This document shows, piece after piece, positions 13,363-30,123 of a stretch of DNA of 37,239 bases. This DNA is from an uncultured Gammaproteobacteria bacterium (GTDB lineage Bacteria; Patescibacteriota; Microgenomatia; Levybacterales; UBA12049), in the NCBI GenBank assembly GCA_964408825.1, contig CAYPAU010000002.1, forward strand, positions 34,589-71,827, in the 5' to 3' direction. The notes below the pieces were generated by a model. That model had not been told where the DNA came from. It searched no databases and saw only the letters and a list, made by a program, of their open reading frames with translations. Position numbers and translations under genes: made by a program. Every line of letters starts with the position of its first letter. The first letter of the stretch is position 1.

Positions 13363-14310
13363 ATGATGAGGAGGGAGCGCCTTGCAAGAGGAAAACTTAT
13401 TCGTCTTTTAAGACTTTTTTTTCTCGTCGTTTTTGTTACCTCTGTTTGGATAATTCTTGCCAACAGAGTCTCTTCAAATACGATAATCTCACCTCTCTCC
13501 TCCTCAATACTTACCTCAAGTCTTCCTGTTCAGGATACAAAGGGAGAAAGTGTTTTGGGAGATATAGTGAAAGATACATTGAAAGATGCAAAGGGGGATT
13601 ACTCAGTGGTTATTTCAAATCTTAAGACTTCGGAAAGTTATTCTTTAGATGAGCATAAAGTTTTTGAAGCCGGAAGTTTATATAAGCTTTGGGTTATGGG
13701 AGCTACCTTTGCGCAGCTTAGAAATGGAATTTGGGAAGAAAATACTATTTTGAGTGAGGATATAAAAGTCTTAAACGAAAAATTTCATCTTGCAACTGAG
13801 TCCGCAGAACTAGAGGAAGGTAAAATTGAGCTTCCAGTAAACACTGCTCTCCGCAGGATGATAACCATTTCAGATAATTACTCGGCGCTTCTTCTTGCAT
13901 GGAAACTGCGGCTTTCAAAGGTCTCGGCTTTTATGGATTCAAGAGGATTTTTTGAATCAAAGCTTGGGGGAAGCGACGAACTTCCTACCACAACGGCCTA
14001 TGATATGGCGTTATTTTTTGAAAGACTCTACAAAGGTCAACTTGCCGACTCAAAGAGTACACAAGAGATGATTGAACTTCTTAAAGCCCAGCAGCTAAAC
14101 AGTAAAATTCCAAAACTTCTACCCCAAGAAACAATTATTGCCCACAAAACCGGAGAGCTGGGACTTACGACTCATGACGCCGGAATTGTTTATCACCCAA
14201 AGGGAGACTATATAATAGTGGTAATGTCTAGTAGTTCAAGACCGGCAGACGCCGTAGAGAAAATTGCCCAAGTTTCTAAATCAGTTTTTGACTATTTTAG
14301 TAGCCGATAA
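13363..14310 (+). CDS. Serine hydrolase, class A beta-lactamase-like / PBP fold
   Basis: SLYK (SxxK), SDN, HKTG motifs; N-terminal TM. Confidence 0.88.
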   Translation: MMRRERLARGKLIRLLRLFFLVVFVTSVWIILANRVSSNTIISPLSSSILTSSLPVQDTKGESVLGDIVKDTLKDAKGDYSVVISNLKTSESYSLDEHKVFEAGSLYKLWVMGATFAQLRNGIWEENTILSEDIKVLNEKFHLATESAELEEGKIELPVNTALRRMITISDNYSALLLAWKLRLSKVSAFMDSRGFFESKLGGSDELPTTTAYDMALFFERLYKGQLADSKSTQEMIELLKAQQLNSKIPKLLPQETIIAHKTGELGLTTHDAGIVYHPKGDYIIVVMSSSSRPADAVEKIAQVSKSVFDYFSSR

Positions 14311-15445
14311 AGTTAAGAAGATCTTCGGCCTCTTTTAAATTTTGGTTATAGAATACCGCTTTTTGAAATTCTGAGCGGGCCTTTTCGAGATTTCCTTGTC
14401 TTTGGTAAATTTTGCCTCTTAAAACATAAAGCTCTGAAAACGCGCGATTGTAATTGTTAAGAACCCTGTCGGTTATTTCAAAAACTCTGTCATAATTTCC
14501 AAGCTCAAAATAAGCTTGAGTTGGCTCTATCTGATACCAGAGAGTCCGGAAGGGAAGAAGATTTTCTACTTTTTCAAACTCCTCGGTTGATCTTTGATAA
14601 TTTCCAATATTGTAAAGCGCAACGGAAAGATTAAATCGCGCATAAATGTCACTGGGATTTTCCAATAGTTCCCGTTCGGAGTTTGCCACAGCGTTCTGCC
14701 AGGAGGCTTGGGCGTTGAGATTTGGACCCAGGATTTGTTCTGCGATTTTCTGTTTGTCCCCTGGAACCAAAACTAGGTACTCATAGTTAAACTTTTCCCA
14801 GAGAATATTGAAATCATCATAAGAAAAACTCAAATTTTTATTTTGTAAACTATCGTCCTGAATAAATATTCCGAGGGCTTCATCGTATCCTTTAATTATT
14901 CTGTAATGCCCTATGTCTTCATTTGGTTTGGTCAACGTTCTGGCAATTACAGGCATGTCATTTGCAATAAATTGTTTAACAATTTCCGGATTTCCCATTG
15001 GGCGGTGATAGGGGATAAGGCCGTAGTTCTTTCCCTTTTCCGCAAGCTCCTCAAGCGTTACAGACTTATCATCATTATCCCCGGAAGCGACTTGATATGG
15101 ACGCAAGTCCTGTCCAAGTTTTTCTTGAGACTCGTTTACCCCATGGTAAGAAAGAGCCATTGATAGAGCAGCGGGACCGCAGTTATTAAATGTTTGAAAA
15201 ATGTGATAGTCGCCATTTGATAAAATTTTTTGGTTCGGAACCGCAGAGAGCTGGACCGGTGTTAGGGAAAGAGACGAAGGAGAAACGACGGAAACAGGAC
15301 TAATGCCCACTTGAACCCGCCTGCCCTGCCCTGCCGGCAGGCGGGCGGCAGGCAGGGTTTTCTCAGAGTAGGATTTGTAGCTTAGGATAATTATTAAAAC
15401 TGCAGATAGTATCAGAACCGCTGATGTTAAAACGATTTTTTTCAT
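14297..15445 (-). CDS. C39-like cysteine peptidase with C-terminal TPRs
   Basis: QTFNNCGP, GHY, QDDS catalytic pattern; TPR-like helices; signal anchor. Confidence 0.85.
   Translation of the reverse strand: MKKIVLTSAVLILSAVLIIILSYKSYSEKTLPAARLPAGQGRRVQVGISPVSVVSPSSLSLTPVQLSAVPNQKILSNGDYHIFQTFNNCGPAALSMALSYHGVNESQEKLGQDLRPYQVASGDNDDKSVTLEELAEKGKNYGLIPYHRPMGNPEIVKQFIANDMPVIARTLTKPNEDIGHYRIIKGYDEALGIFIQDDSLQNKNLSFSYDDFNILWEKFNYEYLVLVPGDKQKIAEQILGPNLNAQASWQNAVANSERELLENPSDIYARFNLSVALYNIGNYQRSTEEFEKVENLLPFRTLWYQIEPTQAYFELGNYDRVFEITDRVLNNYNRAFSELYVLRGKIYQRQGNLEKARSEFQKAVFYNQNLKEAEDLLNFIGY
15316..15356. repeat. CCTGCCTGCCGGCAGGCAGG-family palindrome with a second copy inserted at its centre, in-frame
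   Basis: Removing 15325-15345 regenerates CCCGCCTGCCGGCAGGCAGG; encodes LPAARLPAGQGRR. Confidence 0.8.
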
Positions 15446-15530
15446 CAAGGTATTCTAGCAAATTTATTACTTCTTTGGGAGAATACTCTGTATGAAAAAT
15501 GTGAAATTTTTCTCCTTGAAATTTTCACAC

Positions 15531-15559
15531 TTGCAATTTTCACAAGACAGAGTGATAAT
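15531..15559 (+). promoter_or_regulatory. Putative sigma70 promoter for the GC-rich cassette, overlapped by repeated AATTTTCAC sites
   Basis: TTGCAA-17-GATAAT; AATTTTCAC at 15520 and 15535, near-inverted GTGAAATTT at 15501. Confidence 0.55.
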
Positions 15560-15565
15560 ACGAGG

Positions 15566-15871
15566 AGTTACCGAACTTTGCGTCCGAGAATTGTTAAGAC
15601 GCAAGATGAAGGACTCATTTTGTTTTTTCTTTTTCATCAAATTGCTGATGTCTTAAGGAAAAACAAATCGCACATTGAAAAGTTCTGGAATAAGTTTATT
15701 TTGATGTGTGGAACAGGGTTCTCCCTGTCTTTTGATGATCGATTCATCAGCGGACAGGGGGAACTCATCTGCACGCCAAATTAAGGAGGTTTTATCGAAA
15801 GAGGATTAATACACCGTCGCAAGCGAAAATACCCACACCCAGCCTAACAAGAAGGGACCAACAGGAGGTAC
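15566..15871 (+). ncRNA. Putative structured ~300-nt 5' leader
   Basis: Three consecutive hairpins (about 15618-15667, 15669-15710, 15719-15763) with G-U pairs on the + strand, plus segments complementary to the 3' flank. Confidence 0.5.
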
Positions 15872-16543
15872 ATGATGCAGCTCATCGCCGCACGAAGGTT
15901 CCCGCTGGGCATTGTGGTCCTGATCGCAGTGGCGCTCGCCGCATTCACGGTGCTGCTAAGCGCTCACGACGGTCACGCCAACGCCAGAGCCAGTCCCGCG
16001 GGATCCGCTGATCAAGCAGTGGTCGCGACCTCGTCAAGCATTCACGTGGACGACGTCACCACCACCGCCATCGCGGACAACACGACCGCCGGCGCTATCG
16101 GACAGTTATCCCGATCCAACATTGCGGGTGACCCGAACAGCCTCGGCGGCATCACCGACTACTCAAACATCTCCGGCAACGGCGCCCGAGCTGGACCGGC
16201 TGCGGGTCTGAGCACCGTCGACTACGGCGACACCAGCACCGCTGGAACTTTCGTGGCAGACACCCTCACTACGCAAGAAGCTCTTGCGACGTCCGTCGCG
16301 ACTTCCGACGACCCGAGCCTCACCGGCGTCCTGGCGAACTACGTCCTGATGTTATCGCTGACTGCAATCGCGATCGTCGGCGTGTTCGCCATCTATCTGG
16401 GCCTGCGACTGTACGGCAAGAACGGAGGGGTGTTTTCCAACATCCGCCTTGCCGGCACTGGCCTGCAGTTTGTGTCCCGAAGACAACACGACTCGTCATC
16501 GGGTCACCTGATGTCCTGCGTCGCCGGCGCTGCCTGCTCCTGA
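15872..16543 (+). CDS. GC-rich hypothetical membrane protein (signal peptide, Thr/Ala/Ser/Asp-rich region, C-terminal TM)
   Basis: AGGAGGT SD; C/G-ending codons; 38/60 GC in line 16021 versus 15/60 in line 17101. Confidence 0.8.
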   Translation: MMQLIAARRFPLGIVVLIAVALAAFTVLLSAHDGHANARASPAGSADQAVVATSSSIHVDDVTTTAIADNTTAGAIGQLSRSNIAGDPNSLGGITDYSNISGNGARAGPAAGLSTVDYGDTSTAGTFVADTLTTQEALATSVATSDDPSLTGVLANYVLMLSLTAIAIVGVFAIYLGLRLYGKNGGVFSNIRLAGTGLQFVSRRQHDSSSGHLMSCVAGAACS

Positions 16544-16970
16544 CGCACCAGCACTGCGCGTCTTGTAGGAGGCGGTAACGCTTTCCATTCCCGGCTATGG
16601 GCACTTCGGAGACCTTGTCTTCGATCGAACCACTCTGGGATGCCCCCTCCCCCCGGAGTAAACCAACGCTTCTATGCCAACAGGGTCTTTCGGGGTAACC
16701 CGTAGCCCATTCCGCAGCAGTGCAGATGAGTTTCCCCACAAAATTCTGTGCTAATACGGAAATCGGCAAGTTTATCAGACTTGGAGGTTGACATGACCGG
16801 CTTTCAAATGCTTATTCCAGCTTTTATTTTAAGAGAGAAGAGAAGGGTTAAAAACCCAAAATGTTGTCGAGATACCTTGATTGCAGTTAAGACTTACGCG
16901 TCTTAATTTTGCGGCCATGGTCCCTCTACCTCATTTACACTTTCTCTCTTATCCTTTGAAAATAAAGAAA
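16544..16970 (+). ncRNA. Putative structured 3' trailer
   Basis: Nested stems GCACTGC/GCAGTGC, ATGGGC/GCCCAT, GAGACCTTGT/ACAGGGTCTT, ACTCTGGG/CCCGGAGT, AAGAGAGAA/TTCTCTCTT; three segments complementary to the 5' leader. Confidence 0.45.
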
Positions 16971-17044
16971 TTTGTTTCCAGGGGATAATTTAAAACTTCA
17001 TCCAACAGCGCTTTTCTTGACATAACTAAAATCATTCTACTACA

Positions 17045-18529
17045 ATGATTAGACAAGTTATGCCATCTTCCATTTCTATTATTCAAAAAGCTTCTTCAAA
17101 AGTATTCATCAAATTCCACTACATAGTAATTACTGTTGCTATAGTCTTAAATGTTTTATTTCTTTATTACCTTATTTTAGTTCAGAAAACCACATGGGAT
17201 GCTTTCTGGCAGTCCAACGCTTCATGGTATGCATGGTCTCAAGTAGTTTTAAGTGTTGTTACGGCTGTTCTTTTCGGAATAGCCGTCTCTTTCCTTTTCT
17301 ATGTGATAGAAGAAAAAAAAGAGGGATCAAGATCTACATTTCTTCATACGTTGGGTTCTTTATTTTTTTCAGCCGCCGTAACAGGATGTTCGGTCTGTAG
17401 CGCCTTTCTTCTTCCGACACTTGGTATTGCCGCCTCCCTTGTTGCTTTTCCATTGGGAGGACTTGAGATAAAACTTTTCTCAGCCCTAATACTTTCGTAT
17501 GCAATCTTTCAATACTCCAAAAGTGTACTTGGGCTTTGTGAGATTCCAAAAGAGAAAATTATATCGCTAAAAAATAAAAACTTAGTTCTAAATATCAACA
17601 AAGAAACTCTTGCGCAACTTAATCCCATTTTGCTTTTACTACTTTTTATCCTCACCGTTTATGCGATTCCAAGACTCCCTATAAAATATCGAGCCAAGAC
17701 TCAGAGGGCAATCGCAGCATCCGGCAATATTTCAAAGTCACAAGCAACCTCAGCCGAAGTTTTCTCTCAAATTAATCCCTCGCAGGGTTATGAAATTAAC
17801 GCTGCCTACGGAGATCTGGGGCCAAAGATGATAGAGATGGGTGTAATCGACCTTGATAAATTTAGACAAGTTTATCAACAGTCAGGACAACCATTAACCG
17901 CAGAACAAGAAAAGATCTTAACTTCCGGGCTTGATAAAAAAATAAAAATTGATCAGAATAATTCCTATTTCCTGTTAAACTTCTTTTGGGCTTTTGGTCT
18001 TGGTAATAAAACTAAGATTCTTACAGAAGGCGATATGGTCAAATACGGCCAGGGGCAGATCGGGAACTTTGCCTCGACAGGCGGTTGGACCTTATCCCGT
18101 GGAGACGCCGTGGATTACTACTCAAAAAGAGCCTTGGTGCCATTGACTTCTCAGCAAGAAGATTTAGTGGATAAGGTTGCCTCGAACATTTATAGACCAT
18201 GCTGCGGCAATTCAACTGCTTTTCCTGATTGCAATCACGGTATGGCACTTTTAGGAATGTTGGAGTTAATGGCCTCAAACGGAGCAACCGAAAGCCAGAT
18301 GTACGATGACGCAAAATATATTAATGCTTTTTGGTTTCCCGGAAATTACTACGATATTGCCCTTTATTTTAAAAATAAAGAAGGAAAAGACTATAAAGAC
18401 GTAGACCCAAGATTAGTACTCGGTAAAGACATTTCATCGGCCTTTGGGGCACAAGAGGTTAAAAAATGGCTCACAGAAAAAGGAATAGTTGAGCCGCCGC
18501 CCCAGCAGGGAGGGGGATGCGGAATTTAA
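17045..18529 (+). CDS. Polytopic membrane protein with membrane CxxC and soluble Cys/His-rich domain
   Basis: About 5 TMs, GCSVC; RPCCGNSTAFPDCNHG; C-terminal GGGCGI; TTGACA upstream. Confidence 0.85.
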   Translation: MIRQVMPSSISIIQKASSKVFIKFHYIVITVAIVLNVLFLYYLILVQKTTWDAFWQSNASWYAWSQVVLSVVTAVLFGIAVSFLFYVIEEKKEGSRSTFLHTLGSLFFSAAVTGCSVCSAFLLPTLGIAASLVAFPLGGLEIKLFSALILSYAIFQYSKSVLGLCEIPKEKIISLKNKNLVLNINKETLAQLNPILLLLLFILTVYAIPRLPIKYRAKTQRAIAASGNISKSQATSAEVFSQINPSQGYEINAAYGDLGPKMIEMGVIDLDKFRQVYQQSGQPLTAEQEKILTSGLDKKIKIDQNNSYFLLNFFWAFGLGNKTKILTEGDMVKYGQGQIGNFASTGGWTLSRGDAVDYYSKRALVPLTSQQEDLVDKVASNIYRPCCGNSTAFPDCNHGMALLGMLELMASNGATESQMYDDAKYINAFWFPGNYYDIALYFKNKEGKDYKDVDPRLVLGKDISSAFGAQEVKKWLTEKGIVEPPPQQGGGCGI

Positions 18530-28512: not shown

Positions 28513-30123
28513 TTAGAGCTCGCAGGAGCTTTCAGTTTCGGCAGTACAGGTATCTGTTCCACTTCCACCCTTAGCATCATCAATTCCAGCTTCACCGTCT
28601 ATCACATCATGTCCTGAGCCGCCTCTTAAATCATCATTACCATCTCCGCCAAATAAATTATCGTTTCCACTATCTCCGTCTAGCCTATCATTTCCGTCCT
28701 GGCCAATTAGTACATCCTTTCCTGATCCACCAAAGGCTTTATCATCCCCCAAGCCTCCCACCAGACAGTCCTCAGCTGCGCCGCCAGTAAGCTTATCATC
28801 TCCGCCATAGGCAAAAATTAAATCGCGACCTGCTCCGCCATTTAAATTATCGTTTCCGTTTGTTCCCTGAATAATTTTGTAGTTTGCGATATTACCGGTA
28901 CAGTTTTGGGGAAGCGTTGGCGGATGTTCATATGAACCGCTATCACAACCTGCACCCTGTGGTCTTCCTACCCCACGCTGATCAGTACTGACAGTGCAGG
29001 AGGCAACCGGTACCAGGTCGATGGCCGGACTTGCCGGAAGTAATGCATGAGTCTGTGTGGGCCCGCCATTGTTTGCAAGTGAACCAACCAAAGGATTAGT
29101 GCTATTCAAATCGCCGGTTCCTGAAAGGGAACACGAAGCATCGCTTGCTATATTGTATCCCAAGGAAGTGATGCCTCCGGCGCAATCATCGGATGAAGTT
29201 GCTGCAGTATTTGCGGCAAGTATTGAATTTTTTAAGTTCATTGTCCCGCCAAAATTCCAGATCCCGCCGCCATTATCTGTTGCGATATTATTGGCAATTG
29301 TAGCATGAGTGAAGTTTACAGTTCCGAATCTATTGAAAACACCGCCGCCGTTGAGCGCCGTGTTTCCGCTGATAGTGCTGTTTATGATATTAATCGTCGG
29401 ATCTTGGCCAAGAACGCCACCACCGCGTCCGGTCGTAGTATTGCCACTAATAGTAATTCTGTTCAATGTTACTATTCCTCCAGTGTCGCTATAGATGCCT
29501 CCGCCGCCATGGCTCGTATCTGGACTAGTTGCATTGTTGTTACTGATAGTGCTATCAATTACTGTCAGCGTTCCCGTAGCCGTATTAAAAATTCCTCCGC
29601 CGCCAAAAGTAGCAATACAGTTGTTGGTAACGGTGCTGTTGTTAATTGTTAAAGTGCCCCGATTCAAAACGCCACTCCTGTTGCCATTTTGAACGGTTAC
29701 TTTATCGATTGTGACCGTCGCTCCCGGGTGAATTTCAAAGACCCTATCAATGCCGCCGCCATCTATGATGGTGGTGCTATTACCGGCTCCGTTAATTGAC
29801 AAGTTCGAGATGATATCAAGATCTCCGGTCACGTTTACATTTTCGCCTGCACCTGGAATACTAAGCGTATAGGTGCCTGCAGGTAAAACGATTGTATCGG
29901 TTCCGCTACCGACTGTGCAGCTATCAACAGCGGCGTTTAAATTAGCCGATTGAATAGCTTCTCTGAGCGAGCAATCACCGTCTGAGTTAAGTTCATCGTC
30001 AGTTGTATTCACAACAATATTTGCCGCAAAGATTTTCTGGTTTTGAGACATGAGAAGAAAAATAAGAAGCGGTACTATTAATAGAAGAATGCTTAGAATA
30101 GATTTAGTTTTCAAGTTAATCAT
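28513..30123 (-). CDS. CSLREA-domain beta-helix surface protein with C-terminal RTX-type Ca-binding repeats
   Basis: VNTTDD..DGDCSLREAI, GGGI repeats, DQRGV.RPQGAGCDSGSYE, multiple GGxGxD nonapeptides. Confidence 0.88.
   Translation of the reverse strand: MINLKTKSILSILLLIVPLLIFLLMSQNQKIFAANIVVNTTDDELNSDGDCSLREAIQSANLNAAVDSCTVGSGTDTIVLPAGTYTLSIPGAGENVNVTGDLDIISNLSINGAGNSTTIIDGGGIDRVFEIHPGATVTIDKVTVQNGNRSGVLNRGTLTINNSTVTNNCIATFGGGGIFNTATGTLTVIDSTISNNNATSPDTSHGGGGIYSDTGGIVTLNRITISGNTTTGRGGGVLGQDPTINIINSTISGNTALNGGGVFNRFGTVNFTHATIANNIATDNGGGIWNFGGTMNLKNSILAANTAATSSDDCAGGITSLGYNIASDASCSLSGTGDLNSTNPLVGSLANNGGPTQTHALLPASPAIDLVPVASCTVSTDQRGVGRPQGAGCDSGSYEHPPTLPQNCTGNIANYKIIQGTNGNDNLNGGAGRDLIFAYGGDDKLTGGAAEDCLVGGLGDDKAFGGSGKDVLIGQDGNDRLDGDSGNDNLFGGDGNDDLRGGSGHDVIDGEAGIDDAKGGSGTDTCTAETESSCEL

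Follow-up and report, generated by a model that had tools for sequence, protein, structure and literature searches.

The DNA considered here, referred to as the window, is a stretch of 37,239 nucleotides (nt) from one contig of a Levybacterales genome from groundwater (G000; 780 kb, 38% GC, 23 contigs), and we focus on a GC-rich island that occupies a 1.6-kb gap between a C39-peptidase/TPR gene (14297–15448, minus strand) and the gene for a 494-amino-acid (aa) membrane protein (17045–18529, plus strand). The core of this gap, at ~15790–16740, has 58–66% GC, and the island overall has ~63% against 38% for the genome. Within it, an open reading frame (ORF) at 15872–16543 encodes 223 aa, or 222 aa from its second ATG, with a GGAGG ahead of it at 15864–15868. 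A first-pass annotation, made from the letters of the window, had described this ORF as a GC-rich gene with a strong Shine-Dalgarno sequence and foreign codon usage. Its composition is coding-like, with GC of 0.60, 0.54 and 0.75 at codon positions 1, 2 and 3. The predicted protein, ORF223, has a hydrophobic N-terminal segment and a second hydrophobic segment at residues 149–182; it matched only itself in two very large protein libraries and belongs to no Pfam family. Window positions 15617–16988 are one member of a conserved Levybacteria RNA scaffold, and we hold with moderate confidence that it frames a horizontally acquired, GC- and C-rich gene, the cargo, much as 16S rRNA is framed in an rRNA operon. 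The core of the earlier proposal, an RNA of ~1.4 kb whose flanks form a scaffold around the cargo ORF, is supported by the conservation of these flanks in other genomes, by covariation and by a bias towards G·U pairs.

Three nested pairings between the flanks had been listed initially, and two of them stand. Pair (a), between 15757–15774 and 16720–16737, is where it had been placed, with 18 base pairs (bp) including one G·U, and is the longest flank-to-flank inverted repeat of the island; when other GC islands were searched likewise (n=8), the longest such repeat was only 12–14 nt. Its duplex energy is −38.2 kcal/mol, against −20.7±2.7 kcal/mol in shuffles, and was reached by 0/300 of them. 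Pair (b), between 15685–15694 and 16811–16820, was reached by 0/1000 shuffles in an anchored test, and all of its pairs (10/10) are present in the minimum free energy (MFE) fold of 15600–16990. Pair (c), between 15594–15602 and 16898–16906, is present at its coordinates but at chance level: a 9-mer this long occurs in 71/1000 shuffles, the pair has no counterpart in relatives, and its right half belongs to a local hairpin at 16887–16906, conserved in its own right, of which it forms the 3′ arm. We refer to pairs (a) and (b) as the long-range helices LR1 and LR2, respectively. The scaffold further contains a boxA-like leader and a 3′ rod domain, both absent from the earlier description, as well as a local hairpin (HL) in the left flank, a helix (P1) within the rod domain and a terminal hairpin, all of which are located in Table 1.

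The same flanks enclose different GC-rich ORFs elsewhere, which is what the search proposed at the outset had been meant to look for. In an order-wide BLAST search (245 genomes), both flanks were found twice on a single contig of one other genome, G183 (E 4e-10 and 2e-7), each time around a GC-rich block. One of these, locus B, has a 206-aa cargo that is collinear with ORF223 (29% identity over its length, E 4e-4), and the other, locus C, has a full-length fructose-1,6-bisphosphate aldolase/phosphatase (FBPase) as its cargo (PF01950, FBPase_3; E 7e-177). A search of the order with PF01950 was positive in 8/245 genomes; in five of the eight, the gene forms a GC island (58–59% GC, with 0.67–0.72 GC at third codon positions, GC3), and the scaffold is present in all five. 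In total there are seven clear loci in 6/245 genomes of the order, across two families: A (the window), B and C (both in G183), D (G073), E (G041), F (G074) and G (G076), with a membrane protein as cargo in A and B and FBPase_3 in the five others. The scaffold family is thus real but sparse. The remaining three of the eight FBPase_3 genes (G090 L127, G006 L128 and G162 L133) have host-like GC (GC3 0.32–0.33), and none carries paired scaffold motifs: an LR2-arm motif is lacking in L128 and L133, and the only GGAATAAG/CTTATTCC site of L127 stands ~3.9 kb inside the locus. These host-GC genes share 27–46% identity with the GC-rich cargo genes, so that the order has both native-looking and foreign-looking forms of the enzyme.

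Other searches set the bounds of this family. A first DNA search of 60 relatives gave short chance matches only, and the exact 23-mer at the right end was found in the two G183 loci only, with one genome per species scanned, and in 0 viral contigs. Following the neighbouring gene instead, 80 metagenome loci with relatives of the downstream 494-aa protein showed a GC island in 0/80, and in the best 18 of those 80, E <= 1e-5 was reached by no further gene of the window. R1, a covariance model of the right module, was built from the seven members and scores 92–124 bits on them, a range that is not independent as the same sequences built the model. Strong R1 matches, 3 among 151 genomes of family f1 and 4 among 49 of family f2, are these building sequences; when weak matches are included, 6/151 f1 genomes sampled and 5/49 f2 genomes match. 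Furthermore, a reduced copy of the scaffold lies between ftsA and ftsZ in another genome (G130:C1:~441100–441950, L143; R1 E 2.8e-8), where a boxA-like GCACATTAATA, an HL-like hairpin, a short P1 and a terminal hairpin accompany a 133-aa GC-rich secreted protein that the copy encloses. Extra matches to the pattern GAGAGAAG...CTTCTCTC in G031 and G003 were set aside as chance, as they lie in coding DNA without an island. The genome of the window has one copy of the scaffold and other genomes at most two, with no near-identical pair. An apparent joint from 15680 to 16942 in the sequencing runs, at up to 128x depth, was considered as an empty site and rejected, since its loose-end letters are those of the left flank of member B; an abundant G183-like organism in the same samples thus carries that member.

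Covariation across the members is seen for the scaffold helices. In the right module (25 pairs), 95.3% of cells are paired, against 87.6% in column shuffles, and 12 pairs have changed on both sides; neither value was reached by any of 500 shuffles (0/500), and slid controls are 48–65% paired. The terminal hairpin has 11 of its 17 pairs changed on both sides and 97.4% of its cells paired, and the consensus fold of HL over the seven members has 22 pairs, 10 of them with changes on both sides. A compensatory change is seen in P1, where member E has GGAGGAGAT/ATCTCCTCC in place of GAGAGAAG/CTTCTCTC, and by eye the rod tip covaries as well (AAGAC/GTCTT, CAGAC/GTCTG, CCGGGA/TCCCGG, TTGGGA/TCCCAA and TCAGGA/TCCTGA, with a loop that ends in GC).

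For the long-range helices, RNAduplex on long flanks proved uninformative, yielding spurious long duplexes, and anchored short windows were used instead. The LR2 windows were fixed by independent anchors, namely the 26 nt after the boxA-like motif and the 30 nt before P1. LR2 exceeds shuffles in 7/7 members (0, 14, 1, 30, 2, 4 and 0 of 1000 reaching it), with arms that differ by group: GGAATAAG/CTTATTCC in A–C, GGAATTTT/AAAATTCC in D, ACAAGGTAAAGAA/TTCTTACCTTGT in E, GGATGGATTTT/AAAATCCATCC in F and GGGTGGAT/ATCCACCC in G. Pairing is poor when the left arm of one group is set against the right arm of another. LR1 is reached by 0/300 shuffles in each of A, B, C, D and F; in B and C it is 4 nt longer than in A on both arms, a matched indel, and its mismatches are sense-strand G·U pairs.

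The strand on which this fold acts can be read from the wobble pairs. G·U cells outnumber A·C cells by 27:7 in the right module and by 30:5 in HL, and when the opposite strand is read, pairing falls from 95% to 84% in the right module and from 92% to 76% in HL. The excess of G·U, together with the loss of pairing on the other strand, indicates that it is the sense strand that folds, either as RNA or, with lower probability, as single-stranded DNA (ssDNA). As judged from sequence, these data support, though they do not prove, a selected RNA fold on the mRNA-sense strand.

Table 1. Features of the scaffold as found in the window (member A), in order along the plus strand
Feature	Position	Strand	Remarks
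Candidate promoter, TTGCAA-17-GATAAT	15531..15559	+	9/12 consensus; ~110 nt 5′ of the boxA-like motif; outside the conserved part; putative
Small leader hairpin, CATCA-AATTGC-TGATG	15635..15650	+	Read from sequence; at the position of boxB in rRNA leaders
boxA-like motif, GCACATTGAAAA	15670..15681	+	Motif type in 7/7 members
LR2 left arm, CTGGAATAAG (pair b)	15685..15694	+	4 nt past the boxA-like motif; pairs with 16811–16820; covaries
Local hairpin HL, GGGTTCTCCCTGTC...GACAGGGGGAACTC	15716..15766	+	~22 bp; −35.1 kcal/mol; in MFE; 3′ arm overlaps LR1 left arm
LR1 left arm, GGGGGAACTCATCTGCAC (pair a)	15757..15774	+	Overlaps HL by 10 nt
Scaffold GGAGG, Shine-Dalgarno-like	15785..15789	+	Kept in A, B and C; adopted directly by the FBPase cargo of C; putative ribosome-binding site
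GC-rich cargo segment	15790..16719	+	Own 5′ leader with GGAGG, ORF 15872–16543, 176-nt GC-rich 3′ tail; GC 0.58–0.66, GC3 0.75
LR1 right arm, GTGCAGATGAGTTTCCCC	16720..16737	+	Pairs with 15757–15774
LR2 right arm, CTTATTCCAG	16811..16820	+	13 nt ahead of P1
3′ rod domain, P1 GAGAGAAG/CTTTCTCTC around a long irregular hairpin	16833..16948	+	P1 16833–16840 with 16940–16948, 8/8 pairs in MFE
Rod tip, TTAAGAC-TTACGC-GTCTTAA	16887..16906	+	Conserved local hairpin
Terminal hairpin, TATCCTTTGAAAAT...ATTTGTTTCCAGGGGATA	16949..16986	+	17 bp (17 pairs)

Of the upstream promoter that had been proposed, a candidate site does exist, and its match to consensus is only partial (Table 1); promoter-like sites in the region number 4, against 1.6±1.1 in shuffles. 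The small leader hairpin has a counterpart in member B (ACATCT-ATTTGC-AGATGT) and is weak or absent in C. At the other end, no T run follows the terminal hairpin, and a search of the region yielded no good intrinsic terminator. Members differ in how tightly the frame fits its contents: in C–G the cargo begins 39–50 nt past the G-run of LR1, and in C–F its stop codon lies 9–21 nt ahead of the C-run, whereas in A and B the foreign segment has longer untranslated ends. A small CGGGGTAACCCG-type hairpin with a GNRA-like loop (GUAA) stands just 5′ of the LR1 right arm in A (16693–16705) and in G (L132:2619–2631); it is lacking in the other members and may be a coincidence. The window has 0 Rfam 15 matches at gathering score and no tRNA or tmRNA, and the 11 Rfam 15 matches in 15300–17200 at E up to 10 are all far below gathering and all to eukaryotic families.

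A boxA-like 11-mer is found in 7/7 members, 63–87 nt 5′ of the G-run and 1–4 nt before the LR2 left arm. The reference used was the gamma-proteobacterial boxA consensus, GYTCTTTAANA (PMC5725501, as given in its available text), which is matched at 11/11 positions by D and G, 10/11 by E and F, 9/11 by C and 8/11 by B. Members A–C carry a GCACATT variant that is the same as in the lineage's own rRNA leaders. In the genome of the window, the rRNA leader motif GCACATTAACA agrees at 9/11 positions with the window motif GCACATTGAAA; in G183, the leader motif GCACTTTAAAA, 99 nt before 16S, agrees at 10/11 with that of member C, GCACATTAAAA; and the rRNA leader motif of G073 is GCACCTTAACA. The G000 leader is located at a contig end (G000:C19:1–700), where an rRNA promoter (TTGACA...TATAAT) and the boxA GCACATTAACA are followed by the 5′ arm of the 16S stem; its promoter, leader and stem arm are common with the G183 rRNA leader, and the G000 16S itself is unassembled. 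When the 27 sites of a loose boxA motif in G000 are ranked by downstream GC, the window element comes first, the rRNA leader second and the leader of another GC-rich island on contig C9, described below, third; the fourth, at window 29657 (−), is a chance 12-mer inside the coding sequence of a repeat protein. G000 encodes nusB, rnc (RNase III) and rho. Its rnc directly follows nusB (G000:C5:19002–19675), an adjacency that is suggestive given the mechanism proposed below. The window motif is a putative boxA-type element, and the weak promoter match suggests that it is transcribed.

The local hairpins with alternative folds that had been suspected are real, and one of them, HL, competes with LR1 for the same nucleotides. 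Both the MFE fold and the centroid of 15600–16990 contain LR2 (10/10), HL (22 pairs), P1 (8/8) and the terminal hairpin, with LR1 at 0/18. Forcing LR1 in the window costs +0.5 kcal/mol, with LR2 kept; in B–F the cost is +3.4, +11.2, +2.9, +15.5 and +10.5 kcal/mol, respectively. In A–C, LR1 reaches 8–13 nt past HL, and on this folding model the overhang could act as a toehold once the 3′ arm has been made.

The cargo differs from the genes of its host in composition and in history. Its C content is 29–35% across the cargos, against 19–22% in four host genes, and the FBPase cargos are mutually 34–64% identical. The cargo of C is 78–96% identical to the best 120 of 8000 scored proteins; organism names are attached to six of those 120, five of them Dehalococcoidia/Chloroflexi/Chloroflexota and one Patescibacteria, several on megabase-size contigs. 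Such high identity indicates that this cargo was imported fairly recently or took part in a recent exchange. Members D, F and G, which belong to one genus, lie at a single syntenic site, on the other hand, and between D and F the cargo is 50–55% identical while the flanking genes are 65% identical upstream and 43–47% downstream. The cargo has thus diverged there as its neighbours have, and the cassette appears to have been inherited vertically, GC-rich throughout. In G183, the neighbours of A (a beta-lactamase-like gene and the C39 gene) do not stand together, one being at locus C and the other at locus B, a pattern that suggests a local rearrangement or a duplication of the frame.

Another GC-rich island of G000, outside the window, shows a comparable layout. 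This C9 island (G000:C9:17961–21089, L088; ~3.1 kb) encodes three paralogous 60-aa two-helix membrane peptides and a 311-aa membrane-anchored protein. It starts with a boxA-like GTTCTTTGAAAA, directly followed by GGTATGCAGA, and is closed by the exact complement of AAGGTATGCAGA; the motif GGTATRCAG has only 6 occurrences in the whole G000 genome. Relatives of the 311-aa protein occur in 9/245 genomes of the order, always within a GC-rich island. At 5/8 fetched loci (L100, L101, L102, L103 and L106), the motif is present as inverted copies on either side of the island, and in each of those five a boxA-like motif stands ahead of the motif copy at one end. The window and C9 islands have no BLAST similarity to each other. 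The C9-type layout thus suggests that a boxA combined with a closing helix is general for the GC-rich islands of the order.

rRNA operons are well known for their boxA/Nus complexes and flank-to-flank processing stems, and the scaffold resembles these operons in several respects. A boxA-type leader motif lies directly 5′ of a long-range helix, the 3′ arm of which comes after a product of 1–1.5 kb; long-range helices from both flanks enclose that product, with LR2 above shuffles in 7/7 members and LR1 in 5/7; the product is GC-richer than the genome; and nusB, rnc and rho are encoded. The lineage's own 16S provides a likeness closer to hand, since in G183 it has its boxA at −99 and, by eye, a 21-nt flank-to-flank stem. 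The differences are equally clear. Unlike an rRNA operon, the scaffold would enclose a translated mRNA with a Shine-Dalgarno sequence and no structural RNA; it has two nested long-range helices, with HL competing for the G-run of LR1; it has an extra 3′ rod of 150 nt and a terminal hairpin; and its contents are swappable and foreign. A model for the rRNA leader is available, in which the leader forms a loop (PMC4807359): as far as its accessible text describes, Nus factors keep boxA RNA tethered to the polymerase during elongation, promoting loop formation and correct processing, and in suitable contexts they also block Rho termination. C-rich RNA, according to the part of PMC6797219 available, serves as an anchoring site for Rho.

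The reading that we consider best, to which we give about an even chance, is that the scaffold is an rRNA-operon-like slot, with Nus factors, boxA and a processing stem, for the transcription and processing of C-rich foreign genes. A promoter would start the transcript, the leader of which would bear the boxA-like Nus-factor site and then the LR2 left arm, followed by HL, the LR1 left arm, the ribosome-binding site (RBS), the cargo ORF, the right arms of LR1 and LR2, the 3′ rod (P1/P2) and the terminal hairpin. NusB and S10 would bind the boxA-like site and remain with the polymerase, and the polymerase, thus loaded with Nus factors, would shield transcription of the cargo, C-rich and poorly adapted as it is, against Rho. 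With the leader held near the RNA exit, the left arms could pair with right arms made ~1 kb later; LR1 would then displace HL and close a stem consisting of LR2 (10 bp) and LR1 (18–22 bp). The closed stem may protect the mRNA, or RNase III may cut the stem to release it. Cargo, finally, would be swapped by recombination within the conserved frame.

A more far-reaching version of this idea may be put forward tentatively, as a possibility that we ourselves regard with some doubt. Levybacteria might hold a dedicated rRNA-mimic platform for foreign genes, in which the boxA-loaded polymerase chaperones the closure of a kilobase mRNA loop, toehold exchange from HL to LR1 reports that the cargo has been transcribed in full, and RNase III releases an end-protected mRNA. 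The frame would double as a gene-capture slot for genes of GC-rich neighbours (e.g. Chloroflexota), which would be kept GC-rich in AT-rich, reduced cells of the candidate phyla radiation (CPR), and the C9-type islands, with their boxA and GGTATRCAGA closing repeats, would represent the platform in a second form.

Several of our results weigh against the rRNA-operon-like slot. No RNA run is among the runs that contain the stretch, and hence the transcript and its ends are inferred. The scaffold is rare (6/245 genomes), and the covariation set is small, consisting of seven related sequences in which kin share changes. The window motif itself matches only 8/11 positions of the gamma-proteobacterial boxA consensus, and the loose boxA motif is not enriched genome-wide, with 27 found against 33 expected. 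LR1 is weak in E (15/300 shuffles) and not significant in G (51/300), and although it spans 18–22 bp in A–C, it has 8–12 bp in D–G, which is short for RNase III, a processing stem of that kind having about 20 bp or more of nearly continuous duplex. In all six members folded, HL and not LR1 is in the MFE fold, LR1 costing between +0.5 and +15.5 kcal/mol. Since a Nus/boxA complex can repress translation and promote Rho termination at suhB of Escherichia coli (PMC5725501, in its available text), any boxA effect here could have either sign. The vertical look of D, F and G implies that cargo exchange is occasional. Moreover, the slot does not account for the persistence of the cargo near 60% GC in a 38% GC genome across long divergence.

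The suhB precedent leads directly to the rival that the same scaffold is a brake or switch, in which Nus factors at the boxA-like site, HL and the 5′–3′ closure would repress translation or promote Rho termination until RNase III or a signal relieves them. We consider this rather unlikely, and yet it draws on a good part of the same evidence: boxA-dependent repression of suhB and the lambda N leader offer an analogy (PMC5725501, available text), HL and LR1 vie for the same G-run and are isoenergetic in the window (+0.5 kcal/mol), and a 22-bp HL stands between the boxA-like motif and the RBS, as in the structured N leader. The distances fit less well, as the motif lies 115–202 nt from the start codons whereas the survey in that paper, in the text available, was limited to boxA at <=50 bp, though it allows for regulation from further upstream; in addition, the RBS is covered by neither HL nor LR1, and a metabolic enzyme that has been kept for so long is presumably expressed. 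A pairing of 5′ and 3′ ends could also keep the mRNA of a membrane toxin inert until it is processed, as the earlier suggestion of a hok-like fold-back mRNA had it, and the alternative folds as well as the two hydrophobic segments of the membrane protein in A and B would agree with this. Such a role is very improbable for a cargo of 206–223 aa, which is no small toxin, and for the full-length FBPase_3 that occupies 5/7 members; nor did the minus strand show a promoter-like site. Expression in a high-GC host, a further suggestion, has nothing in its favour, as the GC-rich cargo is accounted for by foreign origin and long retention.

A further alternative places the repeats in DNA. If they were the sites of a gene-cassette system acting on DNA or ssDNA (integron attC-like, Xer/dif-module-like or with hairpin ends of the IS200/IS605 type), their conservation would come from recombination; unrelated cargos do share one kind of frame, also inside a single genome (G183, loci B and C), they are bounded by inverted repeats, the distribution is patchy, and folded ssDNA also tolerates G·T wobble, so that the strand bias is compatible. 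We regard this as improbable. A Pfam scan of five neighbour products (protease-TPR, beta-lactamase-like and unknowns), which also took in the cargo ORF and an antisense ORF, showed no recombinase, integrase or transposase, though no search was aimed at integrases, and none was seen by eye in the ORF lists of the G183 loci. The copy numbers given above, with no near-identical copies, and the divergence of D, F and G along with their neighbours at one syntenic site speak against it as well, and the boxA-like motif, the RBSs and the covarying 150-nt 3′ rod are hard to fit to recombination sites. That the 18-bp pair might be the terminal inverted repeat of an insertion sequence or a miniature inverted-repeat transposable element had been raised as a danger, and it is not borne out: the sole match in the own genome is the element itself, and the five neighbour products scanned include no transposase. 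Only ACA is shared on both outer sides of the repeat, which is too short to count as a target-site duplication, and conserved sequence continues ~140 nt past the repeat on the left and ~250 nt on the right. An RNA-mobilised cassette, also considered earlier, fares no better, with no reverse transcriptase or ribozyme seen and no multi-copy spread. Finally, a plain foreign islet whose repeats are remnants or due to chance, or a chimeric assembly, might be thought to explain the sharp GC jump, the orphan ORF and the chance level of pair (c), and this has already been refuted. Both GC junctions are bridged by independently built contigs in 4/4 runs (one study) with 0 differences, and a single contig (run X2) covers 15540–17192 across both junctions, so that the chimera falls; the depth of the island in the four runs (14.6, 17, 3.6 and 7.3) is of the order of the flank depth, somewhat above it in two. 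The flanks, moreover, are conserved and covary in other genomes, and the 18-bp repeat is longer than any around the eight other islands.

Compared with known arrangements in which a leader element acts on a coding gene, the rRNA-operon-like slot would be distinct. In Staphylococcus aureus, a C-rich segment in the 3′ untranslated region of icaR mRNA pairs with a G-rich segment of its 5′ untranslated region, making a site for RNase III; the icaR pairing covers the Shine-Dalgarno sequence itself and belongs to a single gene without a boxA, whereas the scaffold frame is common to different cargos. The lambda nutL-N leader and E. coli suhB have, like the scaffold, a boxA before a coding gene, and between boxA and RBS they have a structured leader, sensitive to RNase III in their case (PMC5725501, in the text available). 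Unlike the scaffold, they lack a 3′ partner and are not closed across the ORF, and they repress; lambda also requires N and boxB, and no N-like protein is known for the scaffold. RfaH/ops and LoaP provide dedicated processive antitermination of horizontally acquired operons. They resemble the scaffold in that the leaders of foreign operons contain an element acting in cis that is believed to counter Rho (PMC5449661, PMC12691694). However, ops acts as DNA and is recognised by a paralogue of NusG, and the element of the scaffold is a boxA-like RNA. Horizontal transfer in Patescibacteria has been treated in PMC12455944, the accessible part of which makes no mention of such a frame. In the literature searched, supplements aside, we found no description of a boxA-type leader combined with covarying kilobase-range 5′–3′ helices around interchangeable coding cargo. 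If our reading is true, it would explain how CPR bacteria with reduced genomes can express genes of alien composition in spite of Rho, and it would provide a natural example of an mRNA that long-range RNA pairing closes off during transcription, as well as a compact candidate cassette for insulating transgenes.

A few observations concern the surroundings of the island. A GC-rich hairpin repeat, CCCGCCTGCC...GGCAGGCGGG, lies at window 15316–15356 within the 5′ end of the C39/TPR gene, and contig depth there leaps to 245–1507x in the four runs, which indicates a repeat common to many organisms or sites. At window 28600–29900, on the minus strand, a large repeat protein is encoded that is rich in NGGG/beta-helix-like repeats. 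The best promoter-like site of the region, TTGACA-18-TACAAT at 17017–17046 (11/12), overlaps the listed ATG (17045) of the 494-aa gene, so that its true start is possibly a later ATG or its mRNA may be leaderless.

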